Translations under genes and position numbers: made by a program
NCBI RefSeq assembly: GCF_004010195.1
Contig: NC_057717.1
Coordinates: forward strand, 103,320,522 to 103,384,291
Source: Chiloscyllium plagiosum
Taxonomy: Eukaryota
Direction: 5' to 3'
DNA: 63,770 nt
The notes under the pieces: model-generated
Told to the model about the DNA's origin: nothing
The model's database searches: none
What the model saw: the letters and a program-made list of their open reading frames with translations, nothing else
Part shown: positions 1-62,752 of the stretch, piece after piece
Position numbering within the stretch: position 1 is the stretch's first letter
Layout of the letters: each line of letters opens with the position of its first letter

Positions 1-226
1 CCGCCTCCATTTACTTATCACACTCTCAGCTATCTTCCCCTCCCAGCCCCACCCCCTCTCCCATTTATCTCTCCACCCCCTCAGCTCACAGCCTCATTCC
101 TGATGAAGGACTTTTGCCCAAAATGTTGATTCTCCTGCTCCTCGGATGCTGCCTGACCCTGCTGTGCTTTCCCAGCACCACACCCTCGACTCTAATCTCC
201 AGCATCTGCAGTCCTCACTTTCGCCT
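1..226 (+). mobile_element. Penelope-like element family A, 3' UTR and terminal repeat with degenerate hammerhead
   Basis: C-rich UTR followed by cattcCTGATGAaggacttttgcccAAAAtgttgatt and the family-A tail ...ctccagcatctgcagtcctcactttc. The same architecture follows the GIY-YIG remnant at 12830-13565. Confidence 0.7.
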
Positions 227-229
227 GTC

Positions 230-955
230 CTCATAAGACTACCCGTTCATTCTAGGTATCAATGTAAACCTACTCTGAACCATTTCCAATCCACTTATAC
301 CCTTGCTTGAACCAGGGGACCAAAACTGCACCTCGTAATTGAGATGCAGTCTCAGTACTGTAATATATAACTGAAGTGTAACATACTTACCTTTTATGTT
401 CAATTCCTCTCATGATAAAGAAGAGCGTTCCATTAGCCTTCTTACTTGCTTGCTATACTTGTGTACTCACTTTTTGTGATGCATATGCTAGAACACCTAG
501 ATCCCTCTGCACCATAGAATTCTGCAATTGCTTTTCTGTTTAAATAAAGCTCTTTTTATTTTATTCTGCATGCAAAAATGAACAACTTCACATTTTCCCA
601 CATTCCATTCCATCAGCCAAGTTTTTGCCACTCAGATCTATCTTTATCCAACTGCAAATTCCTTATGTCTTCTTCGCAATATAGTTTCTTGCTTACTTTT
701 GTGTAATCTGCAAACCTGGCTAACATGCTGCTACTCCCCTCATCTAAGTCATCATTATAAATTGTAAAAAGCCGAGGACCCTTCAGGACTTCACTCATCA
801 CATCCTGCAAATCTGGAAAAGAAAACTGCATACTCTCTGTTTTCTGCTACTCAGCCAATCCACTATCCATATGAATGTGTTACCACATTCACCATGAGCT
901 CCTCCTTTGTATTATGATGTGGCACATTGTCAAACGCCTTCTGGAAATTCAAGTG
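230..955 (-). mobile_element. Degenerate CR1-clade LINE ORF2 fragment
   Basis: Minus-strand translations include RLFTIYNDDLDEG..ARFADYTKV and LNFQKAFDNVPH, which are CR1 reverse-transcriptase motifs. Confidence 0.75.
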
Positions 956-957
956 CT

Positions 958-1266
958 TTAGCACTGCTGCCTCACAGCGCCGGAGACCCAGGTTCGATTC
1001 CAGCCTCAGGCAACCGTCTGTGTGGAGTTTGCACATTCTCCCCGTGTCTGCGTGGGTTTCCTCCGGGTGCTCCGGTTTCCTCCCACAGTCCAAAGTTGTG
1101 CAGATTAGGTGAATTGGCCATGCTTCATTGCCCATAGCGTTAGGTGAAGGGGTAAATGTAGGGGAATGGGTCTGGGGAGTTGCTCTTCGGATGGTCGGTG
1201 TGGACTTGTTGGGCCAAAGGGCCTGTTTCCACACTGTAAGTAATCTAATCTAATCTAATCTAATCT
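958..1266 (+). mobile_element. HE1-type V-SINE (tRNA-derived), 5'-truncated
   Basis: B-box GGTTCGATTCC, V-domain core gtgtggagtttgcacattctccccgtgtctgcgtgggtttcctccgggtgctccggtttcctcccaca, and a (TAATC)n tail. Confidence 0.85.
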
Positions 1267-1658
1267 GCAGGTTCCCCTTTATCCACTGCATATGTCCTTC
1301 TATCAAACAACTCTAGTAAATTGGTTAAATATAATTTCTTTAACATAAAACCAAGCTGAATCTTCTCAGTTTTTCTATAACTTCTCATATGTTTGATTCT
1401 AGCACCTTGCATTTTGTTGAGTCATTTGGGTAACATGTAACATTTTCTCAGATAGAATGAAATAAAAAAAGTCTTGAGAGTGGGAGAGCTGGATTGGATG
1501 TTGGAATGGACTTGGCTGGAGATTTGTGTGGTATATCTGAACAGTAAATATCGGACATTATTGGCAGAAGATAACAGTAGACGAGGTGGCAGCTCTTGAC
1601 ATAGATTTGGTGAAACTATGGATAGGAAGGGATTAAAAATATCATTTTTGACACTTGT

Positions 1659-1753
1659 CACTCCTCATGACCATTTACATATCGCTGTTCGTGACCGTTT
1701 ATATATCACTTCTCATGACCATTTATACATCACTGTTCATGATCAGTATACAT
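1659..1753. repeat. 24-bp minisatellite, about 4 copies
   Basis: cactcctcatgaccatttacatat / cgctgttcgtgaccgtttatatat / cacttctcatgaccatttatacat / cactgttcatgatcagtatacat. Confidence 0.8.
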
Positions 1754-3324: not shown

Positions 3325-3520
3325 AAAAGAACAAAATCTCAGCAGGTCTGGCAGCATCTACGGAGACTGCAGAAGAAAGTTAATGTTTCGAGTCTCATTT
3401 GAGTCTTTTTCTGACTCAAAACATTAACTCTGCTTTTCTTGCTCCACAAACACTGCCAGACCTGCTGAGTTTCTATAGCACTTCCTCCTTCCAGCATCCG
3501 CAGTACTTTGATTTTTGTAA
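3325..3520. mobile_element. PLE family C fold-back (inverted terminal-repeat) unit, degenerate
   Basis: ctcagcaggtctggcagcat...gttaatgtttcgagtc is followed by its inverted counterpart gactcaaaacattaactctg...ctgccagacctgctgagtt. Confidence 0.65.
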
Positions 3521-3825: not shown

Positions 3826-6200
3826 GTATAGGAGCAACATTAGGCCATTCAGCCCATCAAGTCTGCTTCACCATTTGATCATGACTGATATGTTTCTCAA
3901 CCCCATTCTCCTGCCTTCTCCCTGTAACCCTTCATCTCCGTACTAATTAAGAACCTATCTATCTCTGTCTTAAAGACACTCAATAATTTGGCCTCTACAG
4001 CCTTCTGCAGCAATGAGTTCCACACATCAGCCACCCTCTGGCTAAAGAAATTCCTCCTCGTTTCAGTTCTAAAGGGTTGTCTGTTCACTCTGAGGCTGTG
4101 CCCTCACGTCCTAGTCTCTCCCACTAATAGAGACATCTTCTCCACATCCAGGTCTCTTAGTATTCTGTAAGTTTCAATCAGATTCTCCCTCACCCTTCTA
4201 AACTCTATTGAGTATAGACTCAGAGTCCTCAAACTCTCCTCATATGGCAAGCCCTTTATCCCCAGGATCATTCTTGTAAACTTCCTGTGGACCTTCTCCA
4301 ATGCCAGCGCATCATTCGTTCAATACAGAGCCCAAAGCCGCTCACAATATTTCAAATGTGGTCTGACCAGAGCCTTATACAGCCTCAGCAGTACATCACT
4401 GGTCTTGTATTCTAGGTCTCTTGAAATGAATGCCAACATTGCATTTGCCTTCCCAACTGCCAACTGAACCTGCATATAAAGAATCATGAACAAGAACTCC
4501 CAAGTCCCTTTGAACATCAGATTTCTGAGACCTTTCCCCGTTTAGAAAATTGTCAGCACCTCTGTTCGTCCTGCCAGAATGTATAATCCCACACTTGCCC
4601 ATATTGTGCTCCATCTCTCACGTTTTTGCCTACTCTCTCGGCCTGTCTAAGTCCTTCTACAGCCTCCCCACTTCCTCCACCAGTCTGTCCCTCCACCTTT
4701 TTTGTGTCATCTGAAAACTTAGCAACAATGCCTCAGTCCCTTTATACAGATCGCTAGCGTGAATAGTTGTGGTCCCAATACTGACGCCTGCAAAACTCCA
4801 CTAGCCACTGGCTGCCATCTTGAAAAAGACCCTTTTATCTCCACTCTCTGCCTACTGCCAGTCAGCCATCTGCTATCCATGTTAGTACCTTTCCATTAAC
4901 ATCATGGGCTCTTACTCTATCAACAGCCTCCTGTGCCGCACCTTTACAAAGACCTTATCCAAATAAATCATGTTCACAGGCTCACCTTTGTCTAACTTGA
5001 TCATTGCCTTCTGAAAGAATTCCAGCAGATTTGTCAGGCATGACCTCTCCTTGACAAAGCTGTGTTGAGTCAGCCCTACTTCACCACGCATTTCCAAGTA
5101 CTCTGCAATCCCATCCTTAATAATGAACTCTAAAATCTTACCAACGAGTGAGGTCAGCCTAGGCGAAAGTGAGGACTGCAGATGCTGGAAACTAGAGTTT
5201 AGATCAGAGTAATGCTAGAAAAGCACAGCAGGTCAGGCAGCATCCGAGGAGCAGGAAAATCAATATTTCAGGCAAAAGCCCTTCACCAGGAATAGAGGCC
5301 TAACCAGCCTATAGTTTCCAGTCTTCCAGCCTCCCTCCCATCTTAAACAGGGTGTTACATTAGCCATTTTCCAGTCCTCTGGGGCCCTCCCCAACTCCAC
5401 TGATTCCTGAAAGATCACCACCAATTCCTCTACAATCTCCTCAGTTATCTCCTTCAGAACCCTGGGGCATAGTCCTTCTGATCTGGGTGATTTATCCACC
5501 TTCAGACTTTTCAGCTTCCCCGGCACCTCCTCCTTAGTGATGGCCGTCACACTCACCTCCTCCCCTTAATACGTTTCCCCTTCCTTGGGATGAATTGCTG
5601 CTGTGCTTCTGAATTGCCCCTAGAAACTCCTGCCATAGCTGCTCCATTGTCTTGCCTGTTCGGGCCCCCTTCCAGTCAACTCTGGTCAGCTCCTTCCTCA
5701 CATCTTTGTAGCTCCCTTTACTCAATTGCAATACCACTACATCTGATTCCAACTTCTCCCTCTCAGGCCGTAGGGTGAAGTCTATCATATTATGGTCACT
5801 GCTCCCTAGGGGTTCCTTCACCTTCAGCTCCCCATCATTACGCATCACTAATCCAGATTTGCCTGTTCCCTAGTGGGCTCTATCATAATCTGCTCCAATA
5901 ATAACCTTCTCCTATACATTTCACAAATTCATTTTCTTGAGATCCACACCAACCTGGTTCTCCCAGTCCATCTGCATATTGACGTCCCCACGATTAATGT
6001 AACGCTGCCTTTCTTACTTGTTTTCCTGCCTCCTGAACTATTTTCTCCCCCATGTCCTGACTATAGCTAAGAGGCCTGTACACAACTCCCATTCGGTTTC
6101 CTTTATCCCCTTGCAGTTTCTCAACTCCACCCACACAGATTTTGACCCTCCATCGCTTCTTGCTCTTGATTTAATTTCATTTCTTGCTAACGAGACAAGG
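3826..6200 (-). mobile_element. CR1-clade LINE, about 2.3 kb fragment of ORF2 and 3' end
   Basis: Successive minus-strand ORF pieces: LGSSDHNMIDF, LKVDKSP..PRVLKE, QHSFVKERSCLTNLLEFF, LYKALVRPHLKYC, RRNFFSQRVADVWNSL. Interrupted at 5161-5293. Confidence 0.9.
5161..5293 (-). mobile_element. PLE family A solo terminal repeat nested in CR1
   Basis: aaagtgaggactgcagatgctgg...caatatttcaggcaaaagcccttcaccaggaat, the reverse complement of the hammerhead-bearing repeat. Confidence 0.75.
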
Positions 6201-8262: not shown

Positions 8263-8650
8263 GAAAATAAGATTGGGTCCATCCTCCACCACATCATTGA
8301 TTGGCATTAGAGAGGGGAGTGGTGGCAGCTCTCTCCCCAGCCTCAGTACTGCAGTAGTTGGCACCCAGGCATCACATCCTTCAGGACATGGTGCATGGAA
8401 GTGTAGATTAGCAGACTCACATAACCCAATCAGAGAAGCTGCATTCAGTTTCCTCAAAGTAGAGAAGGTGAGGAGGGGTGGGTGGGGGAGCTGTTCAAAA
8501 ATTAAGAAAGGTTTTGAAAAAGTAATTTTGCAAGTGGATTGCTCACCAGTGGGCACAGCTTTGACTGTCAAAGAACCACAGTGAAGGCACAGCGACAGAA
8601 ATCGCTGGAAAAGCTCAGCAGATCTGGCAGCACCTGTGAAGAGAAATCAG

Positions 8651-8686
8651 AGTTAACGTTTCGGTTCCAGTGACCCTTCCTCAGAA
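8651..8686 (-). ncRNA. Minimal type-I hammerhead ribozyme motif, family C
   Basis: Reverse complement is ttCTGAGGAagggtcactggaaccGAAAcgTTaact: core boxes intact, one mismatch in stem II. Confidence 0.6.
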
Positions 8687-8974
8687 TGGATGGGAGCTGG
8701 GAAACAGTTGTCTTTTTTAATGCAGAAGATAGGCTGGGGGAGAGGGGCTAGGAGTAAACGATAGGTGGCAATAGAGCCCAAGAGAGAGAAGAACAGATTG
8801 ACCCACAAAGTAGTGGAAAACTATCAGCCTGGGAGAATGAGTAGCTGCTAATGGGGACTATTTGTGGTTAACAATGTGGTGGAGGTGGGTACTGCAGGTG
8901 CTGGAGATTAGAGTCAAGATCAGAGTGATGCTGGAAAAGCACAACAGGTCAGGCAGCATCCAAGAAGCAGGAAA

Positions 8975-9009
8975 ATCAACGTTTCGGGCAAAAGCCCTTC
9001 ATCAGGAAT
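8975..9009 (-). ncRNA. Minimal type-I hammerhead ribozyme motif, family A
   Basis: Reverse complement is attcCTGATGAa-gggc-tttt-gccc-GAAA-cg-TT-gat: intact core, 4-bp stem II, ACGT palindromic stem III. Confidence 0.7.
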
Positions 9010-10184
9010 GTGTTGCATATAATAACAGACCATGTGATAATATGCCTGGTGTGTGGGGTTTGGGGTAAGGACAAGGGAGAAGGCGCCTCAAACCCTACAA
9101 TTATTGAACTCGATATTGAGTCCAGAAGGCTATAGAGTTCCCAAGTTGAAAATGAGGTGCTGTTCTTCCAACTTACGCTGAGCTGCGATGGAGCGTTGCA
9201 GTAAGCCTGAGACAGAGATGTTGGCCAGGGAACAGGGTGGGGAGGACTGCAGATGCTGGAGATCAGAGTCCAGAGTGTGGTGCTGGAAAAGCACAGCAGG
9301 TCAGGCAGCATCCCAGGTGAAAGTGAGGTCTGCAGTCCTCCCAACATGACCACTGTGAAGGTGTGGTATTGTTTTCAAACACTAGAATGGAAGCTGAGTC
9401 AGTCGTTACCTTCGAAAGGCAACTGGGTTAAGTAACAGGAAAAGGGCCAGGTCACGTGGGACTAATTGGATAGCTCTTTCACAGTCACGATGGGGTGAAT
9501 GGCCTCATCCACCTCCCCCCACACCCCTGGTGCTGTCAGACTCTCTGCTTTGAGGAGAAACCAGCAATCAGCATATCGAAGGTTGCTGCTTTTAGCAGGC
9601 TCTGTTCAGTTCCCAAACTGCGATGTAGATCTCCTCGAGGGAGAAGAATAATCTCAGCTTTTTCAAGAAAACAAGACTGTGAAACCCTGGAAGATAAACA
9701 AGCCCACGCTTCAGGACATTAAACTAATATTATTCAAACTTGACCTATTGTGTTCCACAGATGGCAGCCTCAGAGGCTCAGTCAAACGTGGTTGAAGTCG
9801 GCTGAATACATGATCACTAATATGAATCATTATCCTTCAAACTTTTCATCGTTGCCATAACCAAACAATCTAATGCGATTTTACCGAGAGCTTATTGACA
9901 TTGCACTGAGTTTGATTAGTGACATCTCTACATATTTGGTAGAGCAGAAATTTCTCTAATCCTGTAATCCTAAATTTAATTTAGCTAAACATTATTCAAC
10001 TTAAATAGTGATTGCATTTTAAACTAAATAACCTTTATCTAAATTAAACTGGAATTACTGGATGCAAACATATCACAGGTGATACTGGATATTTGAAGAA
10101 CGTTGCTCTATCGCACAGCAGATGGGTCCTGCCAAGAGGACAGACATACCTATCCCTCCTCTCTCTCACTGTCGTTGACTGCTT

Positions 10185-11035: not shown

Positions 11036-11293
11036 GGAGGAAGCGAGGGCTGCAGTTGCTGGAGATCAGAGTCGAGATGTTCCTCTTACAGACCGTGTGG
11101 TGCTGGGAAAGCACAGCAGGTCAGGCAGCATCCGAGGAGCAGGAGAATCGACGTTTCAGGCATAAGCCTTTCATCAGGAATCGATGGCCTACTGATGAAG
11201 CGCTTATTCCCGAAACGTCGATTCTCCTGCTCCTCGGATGCTGCCTGACCTGCTGTGCTTTCCCAGCACCACACGGTCTGTAAGAGGAACATC
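11036..11293. mobile_element. PLE family A fold-back unit with perfect 82-bp arms
   Basis: 11076-11157 is the exact reverse complement of 11212-11293, and the ORF track shows the same peptide on both strands. Hammerhead boxes face each other in the loop. Confidence 0.85.
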
Positions 11294-12595: not shown

Positions 12596-12829
12596 ATACC
12601 CTTTCTATATTTTTGCAATCTCCTTTTTTTAAAATACAGAACAAACTTCCTTTCAATGGGATCTTATAGTTTCTGCCTCCATCATTACCTCTGTGGGACA
12701 AAACAAGTTCTCCCTTTGAGAAAGAGTGTTAAAACAAAGCTCAGGGGTGCAGAATGCCCTGGCCTCATCCCAACAAAGTCGGAGGCAAATATTAAACCCT
12801 TAAACCTCAACAATCCAACTGCAACAAGG

Positions 12830-13565
12830 ATAGAAACCACCCCCTCCCCCCACCAGTCCTCACCTTCCACCCCACTAGTCTCTGGATACAGTGCGTTATC
12901 CTCTGCCATTTCCACACCAGAGATATATTTCCCTTCCCAACCCTATTGACATTCCGCAGAGAATATTACCTCTGCAACGCCCTCGTTAGATCCACACGTC
13001 CCACCTTCCCTTGCCACCACAAGAGGTGTAAAACCTGCATCCACACCTCCCCCCACACCTTATCCAAGGCCCCAGAGGATCCCTCCACATCTGGCAGAGA
13101 TTTTCCTGCACGTTTCACTTACCTCGTGTACTGTGTCCGTTGGTCTCAATGTGCTCTCCTCTATATCAGGGAGCCAGAACGCCAACTCACAGAACATTTC
13201 AGGGAACATCTCTGGGAAATACGCACCAAACAACCCCATCGCCTTGTGGCCAATCACTTCAACTCCCCCTCCCACTCCACCAAGGACATGCAAGTCCTGC
13301 GCCTCCTCCACTACCAAATCCAAGCAACCCATCTCTTGGAAGAAGAACACCATATCCTCTCCCTTGGGACTCTTTAACCACATGGCATTAACATCGATTT
13401 CACCAGTTTCCTCATCTCCCCTCCCTCAACCTTTCTCTCAACCCCCTTCCCCCACCTCCTCCCTACATTCCTGATGAAGTGCTTATGCTTGAAATGTCGA
13501 TTCTCCGGCTCCTCGGATGCTTCCTGACCTGCTGTGCTTTTCCAGCACCACACTCTCGACTGCTG
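12830..13565 (+). mobile_element. PLE family A 3' fragment: GIY-YIG endonuclease remnant plus hammerhead terminal repeat
   Basis: ORF 12946-13377 contains FPCHHKRCKTC..LVYCVRWSQCALLYIRE..RQLTEHFREH..VANHFNSPSHS..LGTL (Cys linker plus GIY-YIG with CCHH-type residues, as in Penelope/Neptune elements). It is followed by cattcCTGATGAagtgcttatgcttGAAAtgTCgatt at about 13466-13503. Confidence 0.85.
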
Positions 13566-14359
13566 CATTCCCTCTAACAGTGAGGATACATCAACAGTAT
13601 TTGACATGTCTGTGAAGTGCTGAGCTCTGGCATAAATGTGAGTCCTACTTTCTCGTTAATCTGAGCCACACCTATCTTCTTCCTGTTTGTATTAACCACG
13701 TTCCAGTCCAGTGCCTTTTTCCTTGACCCCTAACAATTAGCTGGTTAATTGCCTTGAAAGGCTCACTCTCTCATTCCCCTTATGAAAGGTTCAAGGCAAT
13801 ACTTCTCTCACTGCCTCAAGATTTTAGCAAACATTTCTGGGTCACAAAGATTATTTATGTAACTTGTTTTAAAAAAAATACTCTAGTGGCAACGGAGGAA
13901 AGCAAGATACTTGTGGGACATTTATCGCAGGCTTCATTACATATTAATCAGGCAGATGGCTGTACAACAACTTCTGCAAATGTTCATAATGTAGGACAAT
14001 TCAATAATGCAAGCAGATGGCCTCTGATTATTCGCAATCTCCTTTTTCAAGGGGAACTCATTTTTACTCATTTATATTCCTGCCTGTGAATGTTTCCACT
14101 TTCTCAGGAGATAAGCATTTTGGATATCTGGGAGATCAGATCCAAGGGAAGTTGTGGGTGGCTCCTGTTCCTTTTCCAACGGGAATCAGTGGCACTCCAA
14201 CTCTTTGCTGGATGCTCTTCAGGATCAGAGGCTCTGTCTGCCTCTTAAGTGGGGCAAAGGGGGGGGAGGTCTCACTCTGTTTTGGAGGGTCCTACCTCGC
14301 TGGTCTGTCTGGGTAGCGGCATTTGTCAATGCAAGTCAACTGGACATCCCTCACTAAGG

Positions 14360-14550
14360 AGAAAGTGAGGACTGCAGATGCTGGAGATCAGAGCTGAAAA
14401 ATGTGTTGCTGGAAAAGCGCAGCAGGTCAGGCAGCATCCGAGGAACAGGAGATTAAGGGCTGAAGAAGGGCTTATGCCCGAAACATCGATTCTCCTGCTC
14501 CTTTGATGCTGCCTGACCTGCTGCGCTTTTCCAGCAACACATTTTTCATC
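14360..14550. mobile_element. PLE family A fold-back unit with 8-bp TSD
   Basis: Inverted arms; TSD cactaagg at 14352-14359 and 14551-14558; loop contains CTGAAGAagggcttatgcccGAAAcaTC. Confidence 0.8.
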
Positions 14551-16309: not shown

Positions 16310-16885
16310 CACACCCACACACTCACCCACACGCACACCCACACACACACACCCTCTCACACACACATACATACACTCACACACACACACACTCGCATAT
16401 ACACCCACACGCNNNNNNNNNNNNNNNNNNNNNNNNNNNNNNNNNNNNNNNNNNNNNNNNNNNNNNNNNNNNNNNNNNNNNNNNNNNNNNNNNNNNNNNN
16501 NNNNNNNNNNNNNNNNNNNNNNNNNNNNNNNNNNNNNNNNNNNNNNNNNNNNNNNNNNNNNNNNNNNNNNNNNNNNNNNNNNNNNNNNNNNNNNNNNNNN
16601 NNNNNNNNNNNNNNNNNNNNNNNNNNNNNNNNNNNNNNNNNNNNNNNNNNNNNNNNNNNNNNNNNNNNNNNNNNNNNNNNNNNNNNNNNNNNNNNNNNNN
16701 NNNNNNNNNNNNNNNNNNNNNNNNNNNNNNNNNNNNNNNNNNNNNNNNNNNNNTACAGTCACACACATACCCACATATACACACACACATTCACATACAC
16801 ACACACACACACACTCACATACACATACACAGCCACACACACACTCACGCACTCATCCCACACGCACACAAATATACAAACACAC
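16310..16885. repeat. Imperfect (CA)n-rich microsatellite spanning an assembly gap
   Basis: CA-rich sequence on both sides of 341 N (16413-16753). Confidence 0.9.
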
Positions 16886-17352
16886 ATGTCCAGGTTGATG
16901 CACATTTGTAGACACCTGTTGTTATGAACCCTGAATTGTAATTCTGCGCACACACCTTTGTGGAACAGAGTGATAACAGGTCACATCATGAGCTCAAGAA
17001 ACCAGAGGGAGGAAAGAGAATAGTGATGTGGATATTAAAGGGAGATTGGACAGCAGTTTTCAAAGCTATGAGAAGTGTGGACAGAATAAATGGAGAGAAA
17101 CTAGTTTTCCTTGACAGAAGGATGAGGAATCAGGGGATGGCAGACAATGACAATTAGGAAATCCCACCCGAGAGTGCAGGGGGAGACAAATTCAATCCTG
17201 GCTTTCACAGGAGAATTGGGTAATTATTCAAAGAGATTCGGTTTGTCAGCCCATGCTAAAAGGTGGGACAATGACACTACGTAAGTTATTCTTACAGAGG
17301 GCCAGCATGGATCCACAGGCCTAATGGCCTCCTTTTGTACTGTAATCATTCT

Positions 17353-17505: not shown

Positions 17506-18744
17506 CTGTAATCATTCTGCTAAATTTCTATAACGTTTTTACAGCACTGCTACAGCGCAAAAGGAGGCCATTCGGCCCATTGTGCCTGCACCAATCCTAT
17601 GATCTAATGCCAATCTGCCTTTTCCCTAAAGGCTTGCACATTATTTCTAACCAAACAGTCATCCAGTGCCCTCTCGAATGACTCAGTTGAACCTGCCTCC
17701 ACCACACTGCCAGGAAGGGCATTCCATGCCATCCCATTACCATTCCTTCAGTGTCACAGCAGCCGAGTCCTCGAACCCCATTCCCTAACCACACTCTAGA
17801 GGCATCTATGTCACTACGTCCGCACCATCTGCTACCATTTAAGTCAATCCAGAATGTATCTGCCCCTTGGTCAGTTAATGTGCTGTGGTTTAATGTATGA
17901 TAGCAACCACACTGTTGATACTTTAACCTTGCTTTTAGAAGATACTAAAGAATTGGAGAGACATTGTCAATCTAAGTCAGAACCAAGTCAGCTCTGGTTG
18001 TGGTTGTGGTGGTGGTTGTGATTCTCAGATCTCCAGCATCTGCAGTCCTCACTTTCTCCTGGTTGAGATTCTTAAGACATGCTGAGATTCAGACACAAGA
18101 TCTCACAACCCCGCTGCAGGGGATTGTCATTTGTCCAGTGGTCCATATGCCAACAAAATATCAACAAAGAATCTCGATAATTGGCATTCCAGGGGTGGAA
18201 CACAGAATATGAACGACAAGCACCTTTCTGTCGGTATTTGAATGTGTGTTCACGATCAACGGTGTGATTTAATTCCGGCAGCTTTACTCTAATCTTCCAT
18301 GACTCTGAGCAGGCACGCAGCTGATCAACGTTAAAAGGATAGCTTTGCTTCTGTGACCTTACAATTCCCTCAGGTTATTCTTGCTGCAGCTGTGCTGGGA
18401 TTAACCTTGCTAGTTACTTCCAATTCCGACCTCGCCCACGTTTGCAGGGTCACTGAGAGGATATTTAATTTGCGCAACACAAGCACAAATCCACATCGCA
18501 GCAGAAACTTGACAGATCCAGCCACTCAGGTCAGCTGCTGCGAATTCTGTGACACGTAACTCCCTTCCTGAGCCCCCACCCAAAGCCTCTCCACCATCTG
18601 CAAGACACGGGTCTAGAGTGTGATGGAATACTCCCCACTTGCCTGGATGAAAGCAGCTCCAGCAACACTCAAGAGCTGCCTACCATCCATTTGATTGGCA
18701 CTACCTTCAACATCCATTCCCTTTGCTCAGAATGGCAGCAGTGG

Positions 18745-44672: not shown

Positions 44673-45226
44673 GGAGTATTCTAACAACAGTAAGGTAGAA
44701 ACTGTTTCAAAACCGGCTGGTGCGTGTGTTCAGGCTTCTGTACCTTCTCCTTGATGGTAGAGGTTGTAGAAAAACATTGCCAGGGTGGGATGGATAAGGT
44801 GTGGTTTTATGACAATAATACAGTACGAGACATCTACAGTAGGACATTGTTCATCCTAATAACCAATAGCCCATCCATTAGCTATGTATGCCATTCAGCC
44901 CATCAGTCCACTCCACCATTCAATGAGATCATAGCTGATCTCATAGCCCTAAACTCCACTTTGCTGTCTTTATGTAACAGGAAGGTACAGAAATAGCTTT
45001 AGAGATGATGACCAAGGATAGAGGCACCATGTTGGCCTTTTCAAAGCCCTGTGAAAGACAAGGGTCATGTCCTCGTAATTTGATAGTTGATTTTAAAGAA
45101 GATATCAAGGTGTTGGCGGAGAAAGGGTTGATCTTTCAGAAAGCCTTCCATGAAGTACCTGACTAGAGACCTTTCCATTGAATATGTTTTTTTACGAAAT
45201 TAGCCGCAATCTGCTGGGAAATTGAG

Positions 45227-45440
45227 GAGAAAGTGGGGACTGCAGATGTTGGAGATCAGAGTCGAGAGTGTGGTGCCAGAAAAGCACAGCAGGTCAGGCA
45301 GCATCCGAGGAGCAGGAAAATCGGCATTTCAGGAATAAGCCTTTCCTTTCCTGATGAAGAGCTTATGCCCGAAATGTTGATTCTCCTGCTCCTCGGATGC
45401 TGCCTGACTTCCTGTGCTTTCCCAGCACTATGTTCTCAAC
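45227..45440. mobile_element. PLE family A fold-back unit
   Basis: Inverted arms around ttcCTGATGAagagcttatgcccGAAAtgTT. Degenerate 16-bp TSD: ctgctgggaaattgag (45211-45226) / ctgctaggggattgag (45440-45455). Confidence 0.8.
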
Positions 45441-45984
45441 TGCTAGGGGATTGAGACTTGGCTAAAAGTCCATTGTCCAGAAGTTGCCAATGAATGCATA
45501 TCTACATGGAGTTTGCTCCTGTTTCTCCCCAAAGTCCAAAGATGTGCAAGTTAGGTGGATTGGCCATGGGAAATGCAGGGTAACAGGGAAATGGAAAAGG
45601 GGGTGGATCTGGGTGGGATGCTCTTTGGAGTTTTGGTGTGGACATGATGGGCTGAATGGCCTGCTTCCACATTGTAGGGATTCTATGAAATGGGACAGGC
45701 TAGAGCATTGTCTTTCTCCAGAGTTCCTGGAACGCTAGGGGCCTAAGGGGTTTCCTGCAATTTTCCAGACATTTAAAAACTGGACCGCCTTTTTCAGTTT
45801 TACAAGTTACATTTAATGGAAGACAATCATTCCACAAAACCACAATAAAACCATTATAGATAGGAGCAAACATAGGTCATTGAGCCCATCAAATCTGCTT
45901 CCCCATTCAATGGCTGACCTGATAATCTTCAACTACACTCTCCTGCCTTTTTCCTTCATTTCCTTAATAATTAAAAGGTCATTT

Positions 45985-51071: not shown

Positions 51072-51200
51072 TGGATGAAGGGCTTTTGCCCGAAATGTCG
51101 ATTTTCCTGCTCCTCGGATGCTGCTTGACCTGCTGTCCTTTTCCAGCACCACTCTGATCTGGACTCTGGTTTCCAGCATCTGCAGTCCTCACTTTTACCT
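51072..51200 (+). mobile_element. PLE family A solo terminal repeat with 10-bp TSD
   Basis: TSD ctggcaaata at 51053-51062 and 51199-51208; gatgaagggcttttgcccGAAAtgTC. Confidence 0.8.
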
Positions 51201-51503
51201 GGCAAATATTTGCTGAGCCAATCAGCTTGGTTAACCTGTCCTCGGCTTTCTTTGACGTGGTGTCTCCATGCATCTCATTCGGTGACAACTGTCACCTCCT
51301 GCAGGCTTTCAAACAGAGAGGTTGAGCCTTCCCACCCTGTCTCCTGTCTCCTACAGAATGCAGCAAGTTGCCAGAGTTTCTTCTCCAGCCAAGTCGAGAC
51401 GCGTTTGAGAGCTCATGCAGGAGTCCATCCGAGATGTTAAAGCCGTCAAAGGCCAGCGTGGAGAAATGTTGTTGAGGGACCAGATCAGGCATATCCTGGT
51501 TGA

Positions 51504-51694
51504 CAAGCAGGAGGCTGGAAGAACACAGCAAGTCAGGCAGCGTCAGGAGGTGGAGAAGCTAACCCTTCTTCAGGACTGTAGCATTACACTCGAAACGTTG
51601 ACTTCTTCACCTCCTGATGCTGCCTGGCTTGGTGTGTTCTTCCAGCCTCCTGCTTGTCTACCTTGGATTCCAGCATCTGCAGGTTTTTTTGTCT
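51504..51694. mobile_element. PLE-type family D fold-back unit
   Basis: Arms gacaagcaggaggctggaagaacac... / ...gtgttcttccagcctcctgcttgtc. Hammerhead halves are cttcttcaggact (reverse complement agtcCTGAAGAag) and cGAAAcgTTgact. TSD atatcctggttga / ataccctggttga at 51491-51503 and 51695-51707. Confidence 0.7.
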
Positions 51695-52789
51695 ATACCC
51701 TGGTTGAAGCAGTGTCAATGGGCCGAATGGCCTTTACCCATTTCAAAGGCATTTGGCCAGGTACATGAGTAGGAAAGGTTTAGAGGGATATGGGGCAAAC
51801 ACTGGTAAGTGGAACTAGTTTAGTTTGGGAGACTTGGTTGGCACAGTCAAGTTGGTGTGAAGTTTCCATTATGTATGACTCCATGCTAAAAGGCATTGGT
51901 GAAACAATGCTGTATGTTAACTGATAGCACTCTGGAATCGCACACATTAAACCACACTGACCACCCCTCTCCCCTCCAACTGGGTAACCATTGACACTCT
52001 GACTTACAGCTCAGCGCCAAAATCCGAGCGGATTAATTTACTTAACCCGAGGAGGTCAGTCTTGTCAATGAGGTTGGGGAGGGGACTATACAGATGCTCC
52101 AACTGTTGGTTAATTCTGTGGGGTTTCTCTGTTGCTTGGGCCGGTTTCTCTAACGAGTGCTTTCCACCAGACTACTGAAGAAGGTCTATTCTCCACTCCC
52201 CTTTCTCTCCAAATACCCAAACCTCCCACACAGATATCTGTGTTTTTTGCTTTGTCCATCGGCTGTCTTATCATCTCCAGCCTTTTATCTGATCGTTGAT
52301 TCAATCCTTGATCCTATTCGCGATATGAAACATAACAAGGCATGTGGGAACATGGTGTTGAGATGGAATAGAATAGGTAGAGCCCTAATTTGGCATGTTG
52401 TGGTGCAGACCCGATGGGCTGAAAGGCGTAATTCTGTGAGGAATTGGAACCTCATTGTTACTGTTGGCTTTTGCTTGACCTTGTGGTTGAGCCAATAAGA
52501 GATGGGGCTAACTTTTGTTCCATCCACAACTCCAACTCGGTGCATTTGTTACTGACCATCATCTTCCACTATCAGTCCCAGGAGCACGTAGACACGTTAA
52601 GGTGGGTGCATCCTGCAGATGGTAAGCTCACCTCTCTACCTGCCCAGTCAGTCTCTCTCCTCCTCCTCTCTCTGCCTATTCCCTTCTCATTTCTGTCTCA
52701 CCATTTTCTCTCTGCTCCACCCCTCCACGTCTCCCCGTCTCTCTCTTTGAATGCGAAGTGCAGACTTTGCAAAACACTTACTTTCTGAC

Positions 52790-53372
52790 TGCAAATATGA
52801 CCCTGAGCTTCCAGTTGCCTACCACTTCAACACCCTACCCTGTTCCCTGGCCAACATCTCTGTCTCAGGCTTGCTGCAGTGCTCAAGTGCAGCTTAGCAC
52901 AAGCTGGAAGAACAGCATCTCATTTTCAACTTGGAGACCCTGTGGCCTTCACGAGTTAAAATCGAGTTCAATAATTTGAGGGCATGAGCAACTTCTCCAA
53001 TGTCCTTAACCCAACCCCCCACACACCAGACCCCTGTCATGACAACCATCCCATTGTCAGCCACTAATGGTGTCCATTAGCTATTCATTTTCCCAGGCTG
53101 ACCTTTACCCAGGTCCTCTGTCTGCCCAGTTGTTGTTCTCTGTTTGGGTTCCATATCCGCCTGTCGTTTACTCCACCCTCCATCCCACACCCCGACTTCA
53201 ACATATGCACCAACCTTTCCCTAGCTGCAATCAGTTCCGGAAAAGGGTCACTGGACCAGAAATGTTAACTTTGCTTTTGCTTTCCACAGATGCTGCGAGA
53301 CCTGCTGAGCTTTCCCAGCAATTTCTGTTTTTGTTACTGATTCCCAGCATCTGCAGTTCTTTCGGGTTTTTT
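52790..53372 (+). mobile_element. PLE family C 3' fragment (GIY-YIG C-terminus, UTR, terminal repeat)
   Basis: Translates DPELPVAYHFNTLPCSLANISVSGLLQCSSAA*HKLEEQHLIFNLETL; degenerate hammerhead agttCCGGAAAagggtcactggaccaGAAAtgTTaact at about 53233-53270; homologous to 8586-9240. Confidence 0.8.
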
Positions 53373-53889: not shown

Positions 53890-54102
53890 AAACAAAAACA
53901 GAAAATGCTGGAGAAACTCATCAGGTCTCGCAGCATCTATGGGAAGAAAGCAGAGTTAACATTTCAAGTCCAGTGTCCCTGCTCCAGAACAAGACATAAA
54001 ACATTGATTCTTTCTCTCTCTCTACAGATGCTACCAGACCTGCTGAGTTTTGCCTGCATTCTGTTTGCTTCAGATTCCCAGCATCTGCTGTTCTTTGTTT
54101 TA
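53890..54102. mobile_element. PLE family C fold-back unit, degenerate
   Basis: aaaaacagaaaatgctggagaaactc...gttaacatttc followed by the inverted ...acattgattct...cagatgctaccagacctgctgagtt. Confidence 0.65.
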
Positions 54103-55130: not shown

Positions 55131-55489
55131 TAAATGTCTGAAAATGGTCCTGTCAAAATTTCTAACTCCAAGATTACAGCCATGTGGGCAAGCTGTTCCT
55201 TTGTTTGTGCCAACATCCTAAACTTTAAAAATCCTTTTCTGAAGGCCCCAAACCTCACGCTTCCTTTTAGAAACTCATTGAAACTATTTCTCCTCCCAAG
55301 CCTGTGACCAATTGCTCCAAGTTTCCCTCTGTAGCTCTCTGTCCAATATTATTTGTTACTTACCTTCCATCAAGCGCCTTTGGGGAGGTGTTAGTGTGCT
55401 AAAGTTTGTACAGAAATGTACGTTGTTGTTCTAACATGTATGTGGGAGGGACTGGATCTGTCTGATCAATGCAACACTTCATGTTCCAG

Positions 55490-55645
55490 GTTCAGAACAT
55501 CTCACAGTCTATAGAGGTCCTGGATCTGCGCACTTACCGTGATCTCCAGTATGTACAGAACACAGAATCATTGATGAAGGTTCTCAACGCCAGGTTGAAA
55601 GTCGCATCAGAGAGCCAAACCAACCTGTTGAACAGAAATTTCCAG
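55490..55645 (+). CDS. OLFM2: Olfactomedin-2 (noelin-2)-like internal coding exon, N-terminal coiled-coil region
   Basis: Acceptor ...atgttccAG ends at 55489 and donor GTatag starts at 55646. The exon is 156 bp, phase 0/0, and translates VQNISQSIEVLDLRTYRDLQYVQNTESLMKVLNARLKVASESQTNLLNRNFQ. This matches the noelin VQNxSQSxEVL..RT.RD.QYV exon; RTYRDLQYV is the OLFM2-type variant (recalled OLFM1/3 have RTQRD). Confidence 0.9.
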
Positions 55646-55755
55646 GTATAGTGCAGCCCCCCCAAGGGGGAAATCTCTTTTCATCACCACTTTCCCTCCC
55701 GACCATTGCACAAATGAATCTCCAGTTGGATAGGACTGTCTGACCAAGTAGCCAT

Positions 55756-56255
55756 NNNNNNNNNNNNNNNNNNNNNNNNNNNNNNNNNNNNNNNNNNNNN
55801 NNNNNNNNNNNNNNNNNNNNNNNNNNNNNNNNNNNNNNNNNNNNNNNNNNNNNNNNNNNNNNNNNNNNNNNNNNNNNNNNNNNNNNNNNNNNNNNNNNNN
55901 NNNNNNNNNNNNNNNNNNNNNNNNNNNNNNNNNNNNNNNNNNNNNNNNNNNNNNNNNNNNNNNNNNNNNNNNNNNNNNNNNNNNNNNNNNNNNNNNNNNN
56001 NNNNNNNNNNNNNNNNNNNNNNNNNNNNNNNNNNNNNNNNNNNNNNNNNNNNNNNNNNNNNNNNNNNNNNNNNNNNNNNNNNNNNNNNNNNNNNNNNNNN
56101 NNNNNNNNNNNNNNNNNNNNNNNNNNNNNNNNNNNNNNNNNNNNNNNNNNNNNNNNNNNNNNNNNNNNNNNNNNNNNNNNNNNNNNNNNNNNNNNNNNNN
56201 NNNNNNNNNNNNNNNNNNNNNNNNNNNNNNNNNNNNNNNNNNNNNNNNNNNNNNN
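55756..56255. other. Assembly gap (500 N)
   Basis: Run of N; the round length suggests a placeholder gap of unknown true size. Confidence 0.95.
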
Positions 56256-57064
56256 AAAGCCCAGGACCCTGAAAGGTGTTGAACTTCACTCCCTACCTTG
56301 TAGGTCGGCAATCCTTCCTCACAGCAAATTCAAAAACCAGCTTCTTAACCCACCTCAGATCACACAATATTCTTCTTTCCTCTTCCTTTCTTTCAAGGGC
56401 CGTGGGCATCAATCCAGCATTGGTCGCCCATCCCTAATTGCCCTGGAGCTGAGCGATTGGGAGACTTTAACTGATGGCCTGTCTGGAGGAAAGTCTTAAT
56501 TGGACCTTTAACCAAATCAAATATTTACAATTCAGAGCAAAGGGAATTCATTTTGTTTATAACGAGGAGTGCTGTTTAAAATGAGGGATAACCTGGATAT
56601 AGAAAATGAGTATATACAGAGACCTCACAGAGTGCCTTTCAGAGCAGGTACTTGCTTGTGATTAATTGAATTGAATTGATGAACACACATATGAGTTAAT
56701 AGATACATTTTCCCATTAATTCTGAGAATTAACTCCTTCATAAGTGGTAAATTATCAGGCAGTTCAGGGAAGTTTGTGGGAGAGAGTTCCACCTGTTTAT
56801 AACCCATTGTGAGATGGAATGTCTCCCGGTTTCTCTCCTTTTGATTCTGTCATACAGTCCCCATGAGCCCGTCTAGATCCTTTCAACACCTTAAATGCTC
56901 CAATTGAATAACCAACTTTTAACACATGGAATTGTGAAAAGTGCAAGAGGTAGAATGGAAAAATTATTTTTCAGCTCCAGTTAAATCTTCACTGCTAATT
57001 TATATAACTGATCTTCACATTTTAATTCTTGGAGATCTGTTGTACGTGTACCTTGCCTTTAAGA

Positions 57065-57197
57065 CAAACACCTGATGAAGGAGCAGAGCTCTGAAAGGTA
57101 GTGCTTCCAAATAAACCTGTTGGACCATAACCTGGTGTTTTGTGATTTTTTTTTAAACTGTGTACACCCCAGTCCAACACCGGCATCTCCAAATCAT
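57065..57197 (+). mobile_element. PLE family B solo terminal repeat with 9-bp TSD
   Basis: cacCTGATGAaggagcagagctctGAAAggTAgtg; TSD tgcctttaa at 57054-57062 and 57197-57205. Confidence 0.8.
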
Positions 57198-57334
57198 GCC
57201 TTTAACAGAGCTCACCTTTAAGAGCACCATGTGCTGTGTGTATACAGTATTGTGACTCTGTCTGTCTGTTGACCTGCTGTGGGTTTGCAAGCTGCACATA
57301 TACAAATGAAAATTGAAAGAACTGCTGTAAGTCA

Positions 57335-57510
57335 GAAACAAAAATAGAGAGTGTTGGAAAAGCCCAACAAGTCGGGCAACATCTGTGGAGAGAAAGCAGA
57401 GTTAACATTTCGGTTCAAGTTCTGAGGAAGGGTCACTTGACCCGAAACATTAACTCTGATTTCTCTCTCCATGGGCCTGCTGAGCTTTTCCAACAATTTC
57501 TTTTTGTTTC
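57335..57510. mobile_element. PLE family C fold-back unit
   Basis: Termini gaaacaaaaa / tttttgtttc with inverted arms around a hammerhead. Confidence 0.75.
57418..57455 (+). ncRNA. Minimal type-I hammerhead ribozyme motif, family C
   Basis: agtt-CTGAGGA-a-gggtc-actt-gaccc-GAAA-ca-TT-aact: perfect stem I (agtt/aact) and stem II; stem III CG has decayed to CA. Confidence 0.65.
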
Positions 57511-58159
57511 CCAGAGAAATGAGTTGGTTTGCGGAAATGTCTGCTTCACAATTTATTATGTGTTTTACTGTTTTAAATAAACTAACCCACAGGGTTAAAC
57601 AATTTCCGACATGATTGATCATTAGACAGCGGCTGATGTTTCTGGCGAGACTACCCCATGCTCTTTCTAAAGTCTGTTGCCCAGAACAATGCAGAGTGAC
57701 TCCAGGCATATTTAATCAGAGATTTACATAGCTGTTGCAAAACCACTTCCCCCATTTAATCTAGCTTTCTGGGTATGAAGGCTAATTTTCCATTAACCAT
57801 TGCAATTCATTTCTGCTCCTGACAGCTACCTTTGAGTGAAATGTGCAAATGCACTTTATCAATACTTTCCAACACCTCCCTATTCATAGCTTGTCACCAC
57901 TTCGTTTTTCTCAGACTTAAGTCTATCAAAGTTAGACAGCCCCACACTTACCTATGATGAGGTCTATCTGCCACAGTCGTGTGATCTTGAAATATCTTTT
58001 TATCATTGATGCGTCCATTCATATCCCTTACATCACCAATCATTGTGTAATTGATGAGCTTGGCTCTGCGGATTTCTATTGTGTTATCACTATCATTAAT
58101 AAATGTCATCAATAATTATATGTCTGTGTCCCAGCATAGATCCTTATGAGACTCAGAAA

Positions 58160-60266: not shown

Positions 60267-60392
60267 AGAGTGAGGACTGCAGATGCTGGAAACCAGAGTT
60301 TAGATTAGAGTGGTACTGGAAAAGCACAGCAGGCCAAGCAGCATCCGAGGAGCAGGGAAATCGACGTTTCGGGCAAAAGCCCTTCATCAGGA
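60267..60392 (-). mobile_element. PLE family A solo terminal repeat inserted in a SINE (60200-60670), 11-bp TSD
   Basis: TSD tgttctgggga at 60256-60266 and 60393-60403. Confidence 0.85.
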
Positions 60393-60393
60393 T
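60360..60393 (-). ncRNA. Minimal type-I hammerhead ribozyme motif, family A (intact)
   Basis: Reverse complement is atc-CTGATGA-a-gggc-tttt-gccc-GAAA-cg-TC-gat: stem I atc/gat, stem II, ACGT palindrome, GUC triplet. Confidence 0.75.
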
Positions 60394-61689
60394 GTTCTGG
60401 GGACCCAGGTTCAAATCCTGCTATGGCAGAAGGTGGAATTTGAATTCAGTCAAAATCAGAATTAGGGACCTAATGATGACCACAAATCCATTTCTGATTG
60501 TGGGGGAGGAAAACCCATCTGGTTCACTAATGTCCTTTAGGGAAGGAAACTGCCATCTTTACCCAGTCTGGCCTACACGTGACTTCAAATCCACAGCAAC
60601 ATGGTTGACTCTTAACCACCTTCTGGGATGAGCAATGAAGACTGGCTCAGCCAGCAACACCCTCATGAATTAAAAAAAGGTAATGATAACAAATTTCCCT
60701 TACTAAACAAATGTCACCATTTCTAATGTCAAGTCTTGAATTTAGGATTTATTAACTAAAGTTAAATTCCAGAAACTGCCATGGGCTGGATTTGAACCCA
60801 TAACCTCCAACCACTAGGCTAGTCCTGTAGTGTACTGGTTAACAGACAATACCAGTATCCCACCATGTCTGTGCTAGCCTGTCTACGAGATGCATTAGCT
60901 TATGTGGTCATTGGGGAGGAAGATTCTGGGCATCAGTTTCCTCAAGGCAAATGTTATGAGTCTTGGAGGCATCACTGAATTCCCTACATCATTCCCCCGC
61001 ACCCCCCCCCCCCCCGGCAACAACAATTTATAGTGCACGTTCTGTATATTAACATGACCTGGCAATCGAGGACCAGAACAATTATCAAATTAAATTCAAC
61101 CCTGGGCGACTTAAGGCCACATTCAGCTGACCAAAGGCTTAGCCAAGGCAGCAGGTCTTAGAAGATTCTGAGAGAAAGAAGGCAAGGGAGAGATGGAGAG
61201 ATGGGAGTCCAGAGCTTGGAGTCCAGGCACCTGAGGTACGGCCAATAATGATGAAGGGACTGTGACCAGGGGTATAGAGGTTGGTAGGTATCTCAGAGGA
61301 TTTTGGGTTGGAGGGGTTTCAGAGATAAGGACCTCATTGGTCCCTGGGGCTTGTACCCAGACTGCCATGCTGCCTACGAGGTTATCACTTAATGAGATCT
61401 AAGCCCCTTTGCTCAAGAGTAGTCCTCTGCAGTTTCCCCGAGCTGTGTGTCCTACAACCTCTCAAACCAGTTCTGCTCTTCAGTTACAGAGTGGGTGATC
61501 AGATATCATCACACTGTGGGTTCTATGCAACTTCGGCATCTGAATTGACCAGGAATTGCTGACCCCTCACTGACCCCCTCCAGCTCATCACCCAGGGCAA
61601 AGGGATAGGAAGGCAAGTGAGAGGGACCAGGATTGCAAATGAGGCAATGAGAGGGCAGTGAGTGGGGGTGGTGGAAGGGGAGAGAATAA

Positions 61690-61978
61690 GTGAGAGGAGG
61701 GAGCAAGGGAGGTAGTGAGTGAAATGAGGCAATGAGGAAGGTGAGGATAGTGAGTTAAATGGGGCAATGAGTGAAATGAGGGAGGGAGTGTGGTAGGTGA
61801 GGATAGTGAGTGAAATAAGGGAGTGAAATGAGGCTGGGCAATGAGTGAAATGAGAGAGTGAGGGAGGTGAGGATAGTGAGTGAAATAAGGCAGCAAGGGA
61901 GGCAGTGAGTGAAATGAGGGAGGGAGGTGAGGATAGTGAGTGAAGTGAGACAGCAAGGGAGGTAGGGATAGTGAGTGA
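61690..61978. repeat. Purine-rich degenerate minisatellite (gaggtgaggatagtgagtgaaat motifs)
   Basis: Recurring subunits; 61861 and 61921 both begin agggaggtgaggatagtgagtgaa (60-bp period). Confidence 0.8.
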
Positions 61979-62442
61979 CTTCCTTTTCCAGTGTGGTGAC
62001 CAGAGCTACGATGATTTATCCTCCATATCAGCTTCCTCACACCTTTATCATCTCACCAAATCACCATAACTCTGTATACTTGTCTCCATCAGGCATATAC
62101 CCATCTTACCCTCAAATATACTTGTGTCATCTGTCTGACAGGGCTACACAGGGGAAACATAGGAAGGTTATTCCCGATGACCGCGGAGTTCAGAACCAGG
62201 GTCACACTCTAAAGATACATGGTCGGCCATTTGGAACTGAGCGGAGGAGAAATGTCTTCACCGAGAGAGTAGGGGGGGGCGGGGTTCTGTAGAACTCTCT
62301 GCCACAGAAAGCAGTTGAAACCAAAGCATTGAATATTTGCAAGAAGGAGATAGATATAGTTCCTGGGGTGAAAGCGATCACAGGGAGAAAGTGGGACCAG
62401 GGGACTGAGTTGGATGGCCAGCCATGACCATATTAATGGTGG

Positions 62443-62752
62443 TGAAAATGTGTTGCTGGAAAAGCGCAGCAGGTCAGGCAGCATCCAGGGAACAGGAGAA
62501 TCGACGTTTCGGCCATAAGATGATAAAGGTGTGAGGAAGCTCATAGGGAGGCCAGCATTTATTGTCCACCCCTAATTGCCCAGTTAAGAGTCAGTCACAT
62601 TACTGTGGGTCTGGAGTCAAGTGTAGGCTAAATCAGGCTTATGCCCGAAACGTCGATTCTCCTGTTCCCTGGATGCTGCCTGACCTGCTGCGCTTTTCCA
62701 GCAACACATTTTCAGCTCTGATCTCCAGCATCTGCAGACCTCACTTTCTCCT
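62443..62752. mobile_element. PLE family A fold-back unit with 14-bp TSD and captured flanking DNA
   Basis: TSD catattaatggtgg at 62429-62442 and 62753-62766; inverted arms; loop 62546-62637 duplicates 62817-62908. Confidence 0.88.

Follow-up and report, generated by a model that had tools for sequence, protein, structure and literature searches.

Hammerhead-bearing short repeats in a 64-kb stretch of the Chiloscyllium plagiosum genome are very probably truncated 3′ ends of Penelope-like elements

The analysed stretch of the Chiloscyllium plagiosum genome (assembly GCF_004010195.1, contig NC_057717.1, positions 103,320,522 to 103,384,291 of the forward strand), referred to below as the window, comprises 63,770 bases, including two runs of N at 16413-16753 and 55756-56255. 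An exon for a Noelin-1 domain (Pfam PF12308, olfactomedin-family N-terminal domain, E 1.5e-17) occupies 55466-55648 (+) and ends just before the second N run; therefore, the repeats described here are probably located within the introns or the flanking regions of a noelin/olfactomedin-like gene. Their surroundings are an intron-rich region of a shark-type genome. The repeats are short and carry hammerhead ribozyme motifs, and an analysis of the window, public proteins, public reads of the species, and published papers showed that they are very probably dead, mostly 5′-truncated 3′ ends of endonuclease-containing (EN+) canonical Penelope-like elements (PLEs), each with the minimal hammerhead of its element. 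At least three PLE lineages are represented, designated families A, B, and C, to which the diverged families D and E are related (A and C).

A loose hammerhead pattern, CTGANGA-N(8-24)-GAAA, matched 14 times in the window, against 4.82 matches expected and a maximum of 10 in 100 shuffles. Eleven of these 14 matches belonged to families A, B, or C, and the other three (22907, 31301, and 35857) lay outside these families and look like chance occurrences. A strict descriptor of the minimal hammerhead, which demanded perfect cores, a perfect stem II with a spacer of 0-1, a palindromic 15.2/16.2, and UH, recovered four motifs, compared with a mean of 0.05 (maximum 1) in 200 first-order Markov randomisations. 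Three of the four belong to family A (8978-9005, 11150-11177, and 60363-60390, all on the minus strand) and one to family B (28358-28386, plus strand). Chance was rejected as an explanation of the motif, because both patterns were enriched over randomised sequence. The proposal of the original prediction that the motifs are minimal type-I hammerheads of the PLE kind was thus upheld. The unpaired nucleotide after A9, the G10.1-C11.1 pair, the palindromic 15.2/16.2, and the short helix I, all found here, are features that Cervera and de la Pena (2014, PMC4209133) list as independent of the descriptor that they used.

BLAST searches with the units detected 14 family A loci over the ribozyme region, 4 loci of family B, and 7 C-like loci, in addition to tail-only fragments. 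Together with alignment, they yielded 17 near-complete copies (10 of family A, 3 of B, and 4 of C), one more family C copy (C5) with an indel, and approximately 12 further copies truncated within or past the motif. Among the near-complete copies, CUGANGA was intact in 13 and GAAA in 14, whereas UH and the unpaired A following A9 were present in all 17. The 15.2/16.2 tetranucleotide was palindromic in 8 of 17, as ACGU in families A and C or AGCU in family B, and the remainder mostly had TG or CA. The pair 10.1-11.1 was G-C in 12 copies, G.U in 3, A-U in 1, and mismatched in 1. The diverged families D (3335-3472) and E (51498-51682) each consist of an inverted pair in which either arm holds a half-motif only. 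Thus, the full architecture, earlier attributed to at least five families, was found in three: the 17 near-complete copies bear it out for A, B, and C, and D and E drop out.

Past the predicted cut site, copies run for ~60 nt to a “short” end or for ~45 nt further to a “long” end. The copies are as follows (HHR, hammerhead ribozyme motif; RT, reverse transcriptase; EN, endonuclease; UTR, untranslated region; ORF, open reading frame).

1-225 (+): A1, C/T-rich PLE 3′UTR cut by the window edge; HHR 100-127 with GAAA mutated to AAAA; long tail to ~225.
3335-3472: pair I7, diverged C-like (family D); each arm retains only the 3′ motif half.
5162-5291 (-): A2, solo, ~130 nt; HHR 5262-5289 with core CTGGTGA; long tail; 5′ end 5 nt before the core.
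8597-8686 (-): C2; HHR 8655-8684 with intact cores and a single stem II mismatch; tail.
8885-9317 (-): A3, partial tandem, with a tail-only fragment (9317-9242), then an EN C-terminus remnant (9258-9121), 3′UTR, an intact HHR 9005-8978, and a long tail to 8885.
11045-11293: pair I1, family A; arms 11076-11177 (-) and 11192-11293 (+), 96% complementary, 14-nt spacer; HHR 11150-11177 (-) intact, HHR 11192-11219 (+) decayed; tail extension 11045-11076 on the minus arm only.
12796-13553 (+): A6; RT-linker/CCHH/GIY-YIG remnant 12796-13482 reading up to the HHR (13471-13498, decayed); short tail to ~13553.
14358-14548: pair I6, family A; minus arm 14452-14358, with a long tail, begins ~2 nt beyond the predicted cut; plus arm 14460-14541 has HHR 14460-14487 and a short tail.
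28235-28436: pair I4, family B; minus arm 28347-28235, with a long tail, begins within stem II; plus arm 28348-28436 has an intact HHR 28358-28386 and a short tail.
28590-29794 (+): B2; GIY-YIG EN remnant 28590-29035 (ORF end), 70-76% identical to shark proteins; ~630 nt of 3′UTR with a GT-rich simple repeat; decayed HHR 29675-29703; tail to 29794.
32422-32514 (-): C3; decayed cores CTGCGGA / AAAT; tail.
40321-40400 (-): family A tail-only fragment; 5′ end ~50 nt past the core start; long tail.
42391-42467 (-): C5; decayed, with a core indel.
45226-45441: pair I3, family A; minus arm 45345-45226 starts inside CUGAUGA and has a long tail; plus arm 45349-45428 has HHR 45351-45378 and a short tail.
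51074-51195 (+): A9, solo; 5′ end 2 nt within CUGAUGA; long tail; GGCAAATA repeated in the flanks.
51498-51682: pair I5, diverged (family E); one arm has the 5′ motif half and the other the 3′ half, with no complete HHR.
52766-53357 (+): C4; EN C-terminus remnant 52766-52948, 3′UTR, decayed HHR 53237-53266, tail to ~53357.
53895-54080: diverged C-like head-to-head pair; tails plus the 3′ motif part only.
57062-57198 (+): B3, solo; HHR 57072-57100 with intact cores; helix III GG, not palindromic; ends at 57197/8.
57355-57560: family C head-to-head pair; minus arm 57420-57355 begins within stem II; plus arm contains HHR 57422-57451 with intact cores and a decayed helix III CpG, and gives the only hammerhead-shaped minimum-free-energy fold of a monomer.
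60270-60392 (-): A10, solo, 123 nt; intact HHR 60363-60390; long tail.
62443-62752: pair I2, family A; 118-nt unrelated spacer; both arms truncated in stem II; extension on the plus arm only (62716-62748).

The assignment to PLEs was based on tblastn of shark PLE proteins, including the family-A-type relatives P0026 and P0027, onto the window. Four EN remnants were found, each upstream of a hammerhead on the same strand.

28590-29035 (+): E 5e-52; family B hammerhead ~640 nt downstream.
12796-13482 (+): E 2e-47, 44-49% identity; family A hammerhead ~0-100 nt downstream.
52766-52948 (+): E 1e-8; family C hammerhead ~290 nt downstream.
9121-9258 (-): E 3e-6; family A hammerhead ~115 nt downstream.

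All four placements of family A, B, or C hammerheads 3′ of GIY-YIG remnants in the original prediction were thereby confirmed, with corrected coordinates. The C-termini of shark proteins show 73-76% identity to the ORF 28628-29029, and the region 28235-29794 has family B hammerhead modules on both sides of its EN remnant. The closest relatives of the PLE coding remnants in the window are annotated proteins from Chiloscyllium, Scyliorhinus, Heptranchias, and Mustelus, so that the elasmobranch host assumed in the original prediction is reasonable. One shark relative, P0009 (643 aa), carries RVT_1 (E 5e-9) and the same C-terminal domain as the EN remnants in one protein, which supports the predicted link to elements with RT and EN. 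In turn, the idea of a separate non-autonomous system of “miniature elements” was not supported, as the anatomy of the repeats is that of ordinary PLE insertions and four copies still carry the ORF end.

In the layout that we propose, an insertion terminates in the end of an RT-GIY-YIG ORF, a 3′UTR of ~90-650 nt, a minimal type-I hammerhead, and then 80-90 nt, or ~125-135 nt where the optional ~45-nt tail is present. Most copies are reduced to the hammerhead plus tail or less, because they are heavily 5′-truncated. Solitary family A copies comprised seven long ones and a short one. Seven short-spacer inverted pairs carry units, and the tail extension was located on exactly one arm in all five of the inverted pairs of families A and B. 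Judging from published PLE work, the two 3′ ends may mark two internal start sites of reverse transcription, and the inverted pairs may arise at integration by priming on both cut DNA strands. Traces of insertion are seen at the borders of two units. A2 interrupts a LINE (long interspersed nuclear element) RT ORF that resumes at 5157, 5 nt on (tblastn of the RVT_1 ORF of the window: 5157-4921, E 6e-19). A10 is placed in a tRNA-like SINE (short interspersed nuclear element) between 10-bp duplications, and its borders coincide with the loose ends, at 60269 and 60392, of reads that stem from other copies. An origin of the module from a tRNA-type SINE was considered and rejected, as the tRNA-like sequence beside A10 is the insertion target with duplicated flanks.

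A similar anatomy has been reported for other PLEs. According to the part of the study by Frangieh et al. (2024, PMC11167929) covered here, PAc, a Poseidon-clade PLE of Anolis carolinensis, likewise has a hammerhead ~100-130 nt before its 3′ end, a distance similar to the ~88/135 nt in the window, and two alternative 3′ ends ~30-45 nt apart, which represent two RT start sites and whose spacing corresponds to the tail. In the same work, both DNA strands were cut and extended in vitro, which would yield head-to-head copies. A difference is that the ORF of PAc starts within the ribozyme, whereas in family A the frame from the AUG of CUGAUGA closes after 18 codons. The portion of Craig et al. (2021, PMC8557442) considered describes extensive 5′ truncation of PLE insertions, partial tandems (as here at 9317-8885), an adjoining inverted 5′-truncated copy, and a tail that is often confined to one end, of 30-40 bp compared with ~45 nt in the window.

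Families A, C, D, and E have in common a conserved tail block of ~35 nt despite their differing hammerhead stems, and family B is distinct in this respect. The block contains a 5-bp hairpin, UGCUG/CAGCA, right before the AC-rich short 3′ end, and no compensatory changes of its pairs were found; examples are 60288-60362 (-), 8580-8654 (-), 51600-51674 (+), and 3426-3500 (+). This hairpin may be the counterpart of the stem-loop that serves RT initiation in PAc. Two observations concern the tails. Both arms of pair I1 have at their outer ends (11076-11096 and 11273-11293) a stretch of ~20 nt that is unseen in other family A copies and lies exactly at the short/long tail boundary, and the minus arm continues past it with the normal extension 11045-11076; filler, target sequence, or fold-back synthesis may account for it. 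In addition, an orphan ~45-nt family A tail extension is located at 18029-18056 (+) without the remainder of a unit.

The stems of the motif were compared between families by a script that counted pairs from anchor positions, as MAFFT shifts family B by one column. The pair 10.3/11.3 is G-C, A-U, and G-C in families A, B, and C, respectively, and 10.4/11.4 is C-G, G-C, and U-A; both changes are compensatory. Helix I pairs differ between families at three positions, among them 1.1/2.1 (G-C, G-C, and A-U) and 1.3/2.3 (U.U, G-C, and C-G). Helix I has 4 bp in family C and 3 bp, a mismatch, and 1-2 bp in family B. The stems thus do differ between families and yet pair, as originally suggested, although the atc/gat stem I proposed for family A was found in 1 of 10 copies only. 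The changes between families appear covariation-like, and with three lineages they amount to no statistical proof. A covariance model built on family A and run unfiltered scored the A copies at 60-72 bits and copies of C and B weakly (22.8, 15.8, and 10.6 bits); given these weak scores, it was not used for the cross-family alignment. In family A, helix II was paired in 87.5% of cells, and no covariation was detected within the family (72.5% of cells paired; 203 of 500 shuffles reached the observed score). The genomic copies decay neutrally. The helix III CpG has changed to TG or CA in many of them, as a methylated CpG would be expected to do once a copy is dead.

As for function, in master copies two hammerheads would pair through the palindromic ACGU or AGCU and, as a dimer, cleave multimeric element RNA; this role is suggested by analogy with the PLE literature. 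The RNA data that bear on it are poly(A) single-cell reads, in which family B has a poly(A) site. With an AATAAA at 57110-57115, 236 reads enter poly(A) after 57125 and another 174 do so after 57130; these positions lie 10-15 nt beyond AATAAA and ~28 nt 3′ of the predicted family B cut. Reads whose first mate mapped to the minus strand gave the greater depth at 57101-57130 (194 vs 55).

Several results weigh against a derivation of the repeats from EN+ PLEs with a working hammerhead. On the protein side, no Pfam GIY-YIG domain was detected in 436 stop-to-stop ORFs of at least 55 aa (E<=0.01) or in the four remnant ORFs (E<=10). The sole match of a profile of the remnant C-terminal domains in the PDB was phage T4 endonuclease II (2wsh), a GIY-YIG enzyme, on the GIY..YIG stretch at E 0.04, so that the GIY-YIG assignment of the remnants is weak. 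A PDB sequence search with P0009 was uninformative (best E 0.49), and the labels PF26215 and PF28514, precomputed for the shark relatives, were absent from our own Pfam scan. No PLE-type RT remnant was found in the window, as tblastn with P0009 matched EN parts only, and the window contains no full-length PLE or complete pLTR-ORF-pLTR unit (pLTR, pseudo-long terminal repeat). On the RNA side, the search with hammerhead covariance models came out negative: the Rfam models gave no match in the window at gathering score and 18 weak ones at E<=10, none of them to a hammerhead. Rfam hammerhead models contain the helix III hairpin, which the motifs of the window do not have, so no match was to be expected. 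Helix I of family A is 2 bp, a U.U, and 1 bp, with 57.5% of cells paired; 8 of 10 copies have the U.U as their third pair. Among four copies folded as monomers, one, of family C (57412-57461), was hammerhead-like, and the z-scores of the four were unremarkable (-0.5 to -1.8); poor predicted folding of the monomer fits a motif that needs a partner. A head-to-head pair folded as RNA gave a ~100-bp hairpin that buries the ribozyme (-202.6 kcal/mol, z -26). No pile-up of read starts or ends was seen in the poly(A) single-cell RNA, a library ill-suited to cleavage. For PAc, according to the considered part of PMC11167929, mutation of the hammerhead left insertion in vitro unaffected, and none of the RNA-seq reads ended at the cut site. 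Finally, among 13 truncated family A copies, the 5′ ends of 8 fell within -6..+4 of CUGAUGA.

Part of this evidence is directed at function, and it would fit a hammerhead-like motif that is kept in PLE masters for a non-cleavage role, such as an RNA structure bound by the RT or positioning at the transcript end, and that cuts rarely or never in vivo. The results on PAc and the read-end data just given point in this direction, and so do the very weak helix I of family A and the low in vitro activity of the minimal hammerheads of metazoan PLEs (PMC4209133). Moreover, the poly(A) reads after 57125/57130 have a median of 69-71 of 150 letters unmatched; therefore, ~80 nt of such a read would lie on the element, and the reads would cross the family B cut ~28 nt upstream. 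To our knowledge, in vivo cleavage has been proven for no vertebrate PLE. However, lineages with differing stems and tails have all retained the catalytic nucleotides, G10.1-C11.1, and the palindromic helix III, and this would be difficult to account for if the catalytic fold were not under selection. In addition, fungal PLE hammerheads cleave well (PMC4209133), and poly(A) single-cell libraries are poor at showing cleaved fragments. We consider a role other than cleavage unlikely, though it is the strongest of the competing explanations.

Somewhat less probable still is the view of the original prediction, in which the ~125-135-nt hammerhead-plus-tail is a discrete non-autonomous unit, a mini-PLE or a solo pLTR-like retrocopy. 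Transcription or processing would set the RNA start of such a unit immediately 5′ of the ribozyme, and the PLE RT-EN would copy it in trans. The clustering of family A 5′ ends is far beyond random truncation, in a small sample that was obtained partly by motif search. Three solo units of 120-130 nt with target duplications start at -5 (A2), -2 (A10), and +2 (A9), and the truncated family B copies begin 8-10 nt before the core. Non-autonomous PLE derivatives are also known, namely retrozymes (10.64898/2026.07.22.740005) and non-autonomous Chlamys (PMC8557442), according to the covered parts of these sources. However, the truncation points form a series, as the other 5 of the 13 family A ends lie at +9..+12 (two), +30 (one), and +48..+50 (two). 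Four copies retain the ORF end, and the short units have no internal sequence of their own. Furthermore, reads show sequence before 62636 that extends upstream of the ribozyme (0.6 agreement), so that many other copies extend further 5′. The three solo units and the clustering of 5′ ends thus leave some room for a discrete short unit beside the truncated PLE copies.

A bolder form of the same thought is that the 5′ edge of the hammerhead is a real RNA end, produced by a transcription start or by processing, and that the ~125-135-nt hammerhead-plus-tail RNAs are self-sustaining mini-retrocopies, which may be reverse-transcribed singly or from both target strands. We regard this as quite doubtful. 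Cleavage in family B ~28 nt before the poly(A) site would decide between a polyadenylated mRNA and the loss of the tail, and the RNA end together with this poly(A) site would give the long-unexplained PLE hammerhead a job in transcript sorting. The pile-up of 5′ ends at the ribozyme edge and the family B poly(A) site in any case bear on what the PLE hammerhead does.

It is highly improbable that the head-to-head pairs are hairpin-RNA genes, i.e., sources of miRNA- or siRNA-like small RNAs with an incidental hammerhead likeness: they do fold as ~100-bp near-perfect hairpins and have weak matches to miRNA precursors (mir-1791, the best, at 41.4 bits, mir-680, mir-335, and MIR528), but these lie far under the gathering scores of 62-104 bits (75 for mir-1791), arm junctions differ between pairs, and the same units also occur singly and joined to PLE ORF ends. 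The matches (51523-51637, 11126-11244, 14404-14529, and 45292-45410) fall on the inverted PLE pairs and arise because these form long hairpins; they are no evidence for miRNA genes.

Dead 3′ ends of PLEs that each carry a minimal hammerhead, the explanation that we favor, agree closely with what is known from other animals. A paper of 2014 (PMC4209133) already described PLE terminal repeats with minimal hammerheads of the dimer type, which form several covarying families and reach thousands of copies per genome, and the novelty of the multi-family, covarying, dimer-type motifs was therefore over-rated. The window motifs have in common with the published ones the type-I topology with CUGANGA, GAAA, and UH cores, an additional unpaired nucleotide ahead of stem II, G10.1-C11.1, a short helix I, and a helix III consisting of a palindromic tetranucleotide, which implies dimers. 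Several consensus families per genome with compensatory changes, and mostly solitary motifs from truncated PLEs, some of them paired on opposite strands, are likewise common to both. Stem II has 4-5 bp here and 7-8 bp in the Schistosoma families, whereas the helix I of ~2 bp in family A is like that of a Drosophila virilis variant (PMC4209133). The host is an elasmobranch, and sharks are not among the vertebrates named in the covered portion of PMC4209133, which are bony fishes, coelacanth, Xenopus, and reptiles.

Retrozymes were also compared. The animal non-LTR retrozymes in the considered part of Cervera and de la Pena (2020, PMC7229834) are type-I hammerhead units related to PLE terminal repeats, and a 2026 preprint by Li, Clavereau, and Pollet (10.64898/2026.07.22.740005) links animal retrozymes to PLE repeats. 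In its covered sections, the latter reports retrozymes in one chondrichthyan, with solitary “monomer” copies common. Retrozymes are defined by head-to-tail tandem arrays. Retrozyme arrays were rejected as an identity of the units, because none of the 11 TRF tandem arrays of the window carries the motif and the copies are solitary or inverted; no direct tandem of two units was found in the window. A search of the literature on Penelope elements in sharks and elasmobranchs found no description of families A, B, and C in the parts of the papers covered, and the supplements of PMC4209133 or of the preprint may include cartilaginous fishes. The families add elasmobranch lineages to the known association of PLEs with minimal hammerheads and leave the understanding of these elements unchanged. 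At the same time, one 64-kb stretch offers a clean set of examples of two 3′ ends, the one-sided tail (5 of 5), a truncation series, and target duplications.

Other repeats were noted in the window. LINE-type RT remnants are located at 35813-38717, 4749-5565, 24026-24151, and 39071-39257, all on the minus strand (RVT_1 E 1.5e-14 and 3.8e-14); those at 35813-38717 (-) and 4749-5157 (-) are LINE copies without kinship to PLE proteins, and the copy at 4749-5565 is the one that A2 splits. A perfect 40-nt duplication (x2) lies at 35800-35879. The first N run, 16413-16753, is bordered on both sides by (CA)n microsatellites (16310-16410 and 16760-16886), and this assembly gap therefore probably falls inside a simple repeat. 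The 118-nt spacer of pair I2 (62520-62635) is occupied by another repeat, not related to the units. This repeat and the tRNA-like SINE at 60393-60520 (-) are very abundant in contig-type sequencing runs, where summed word depth does not equal copy number.

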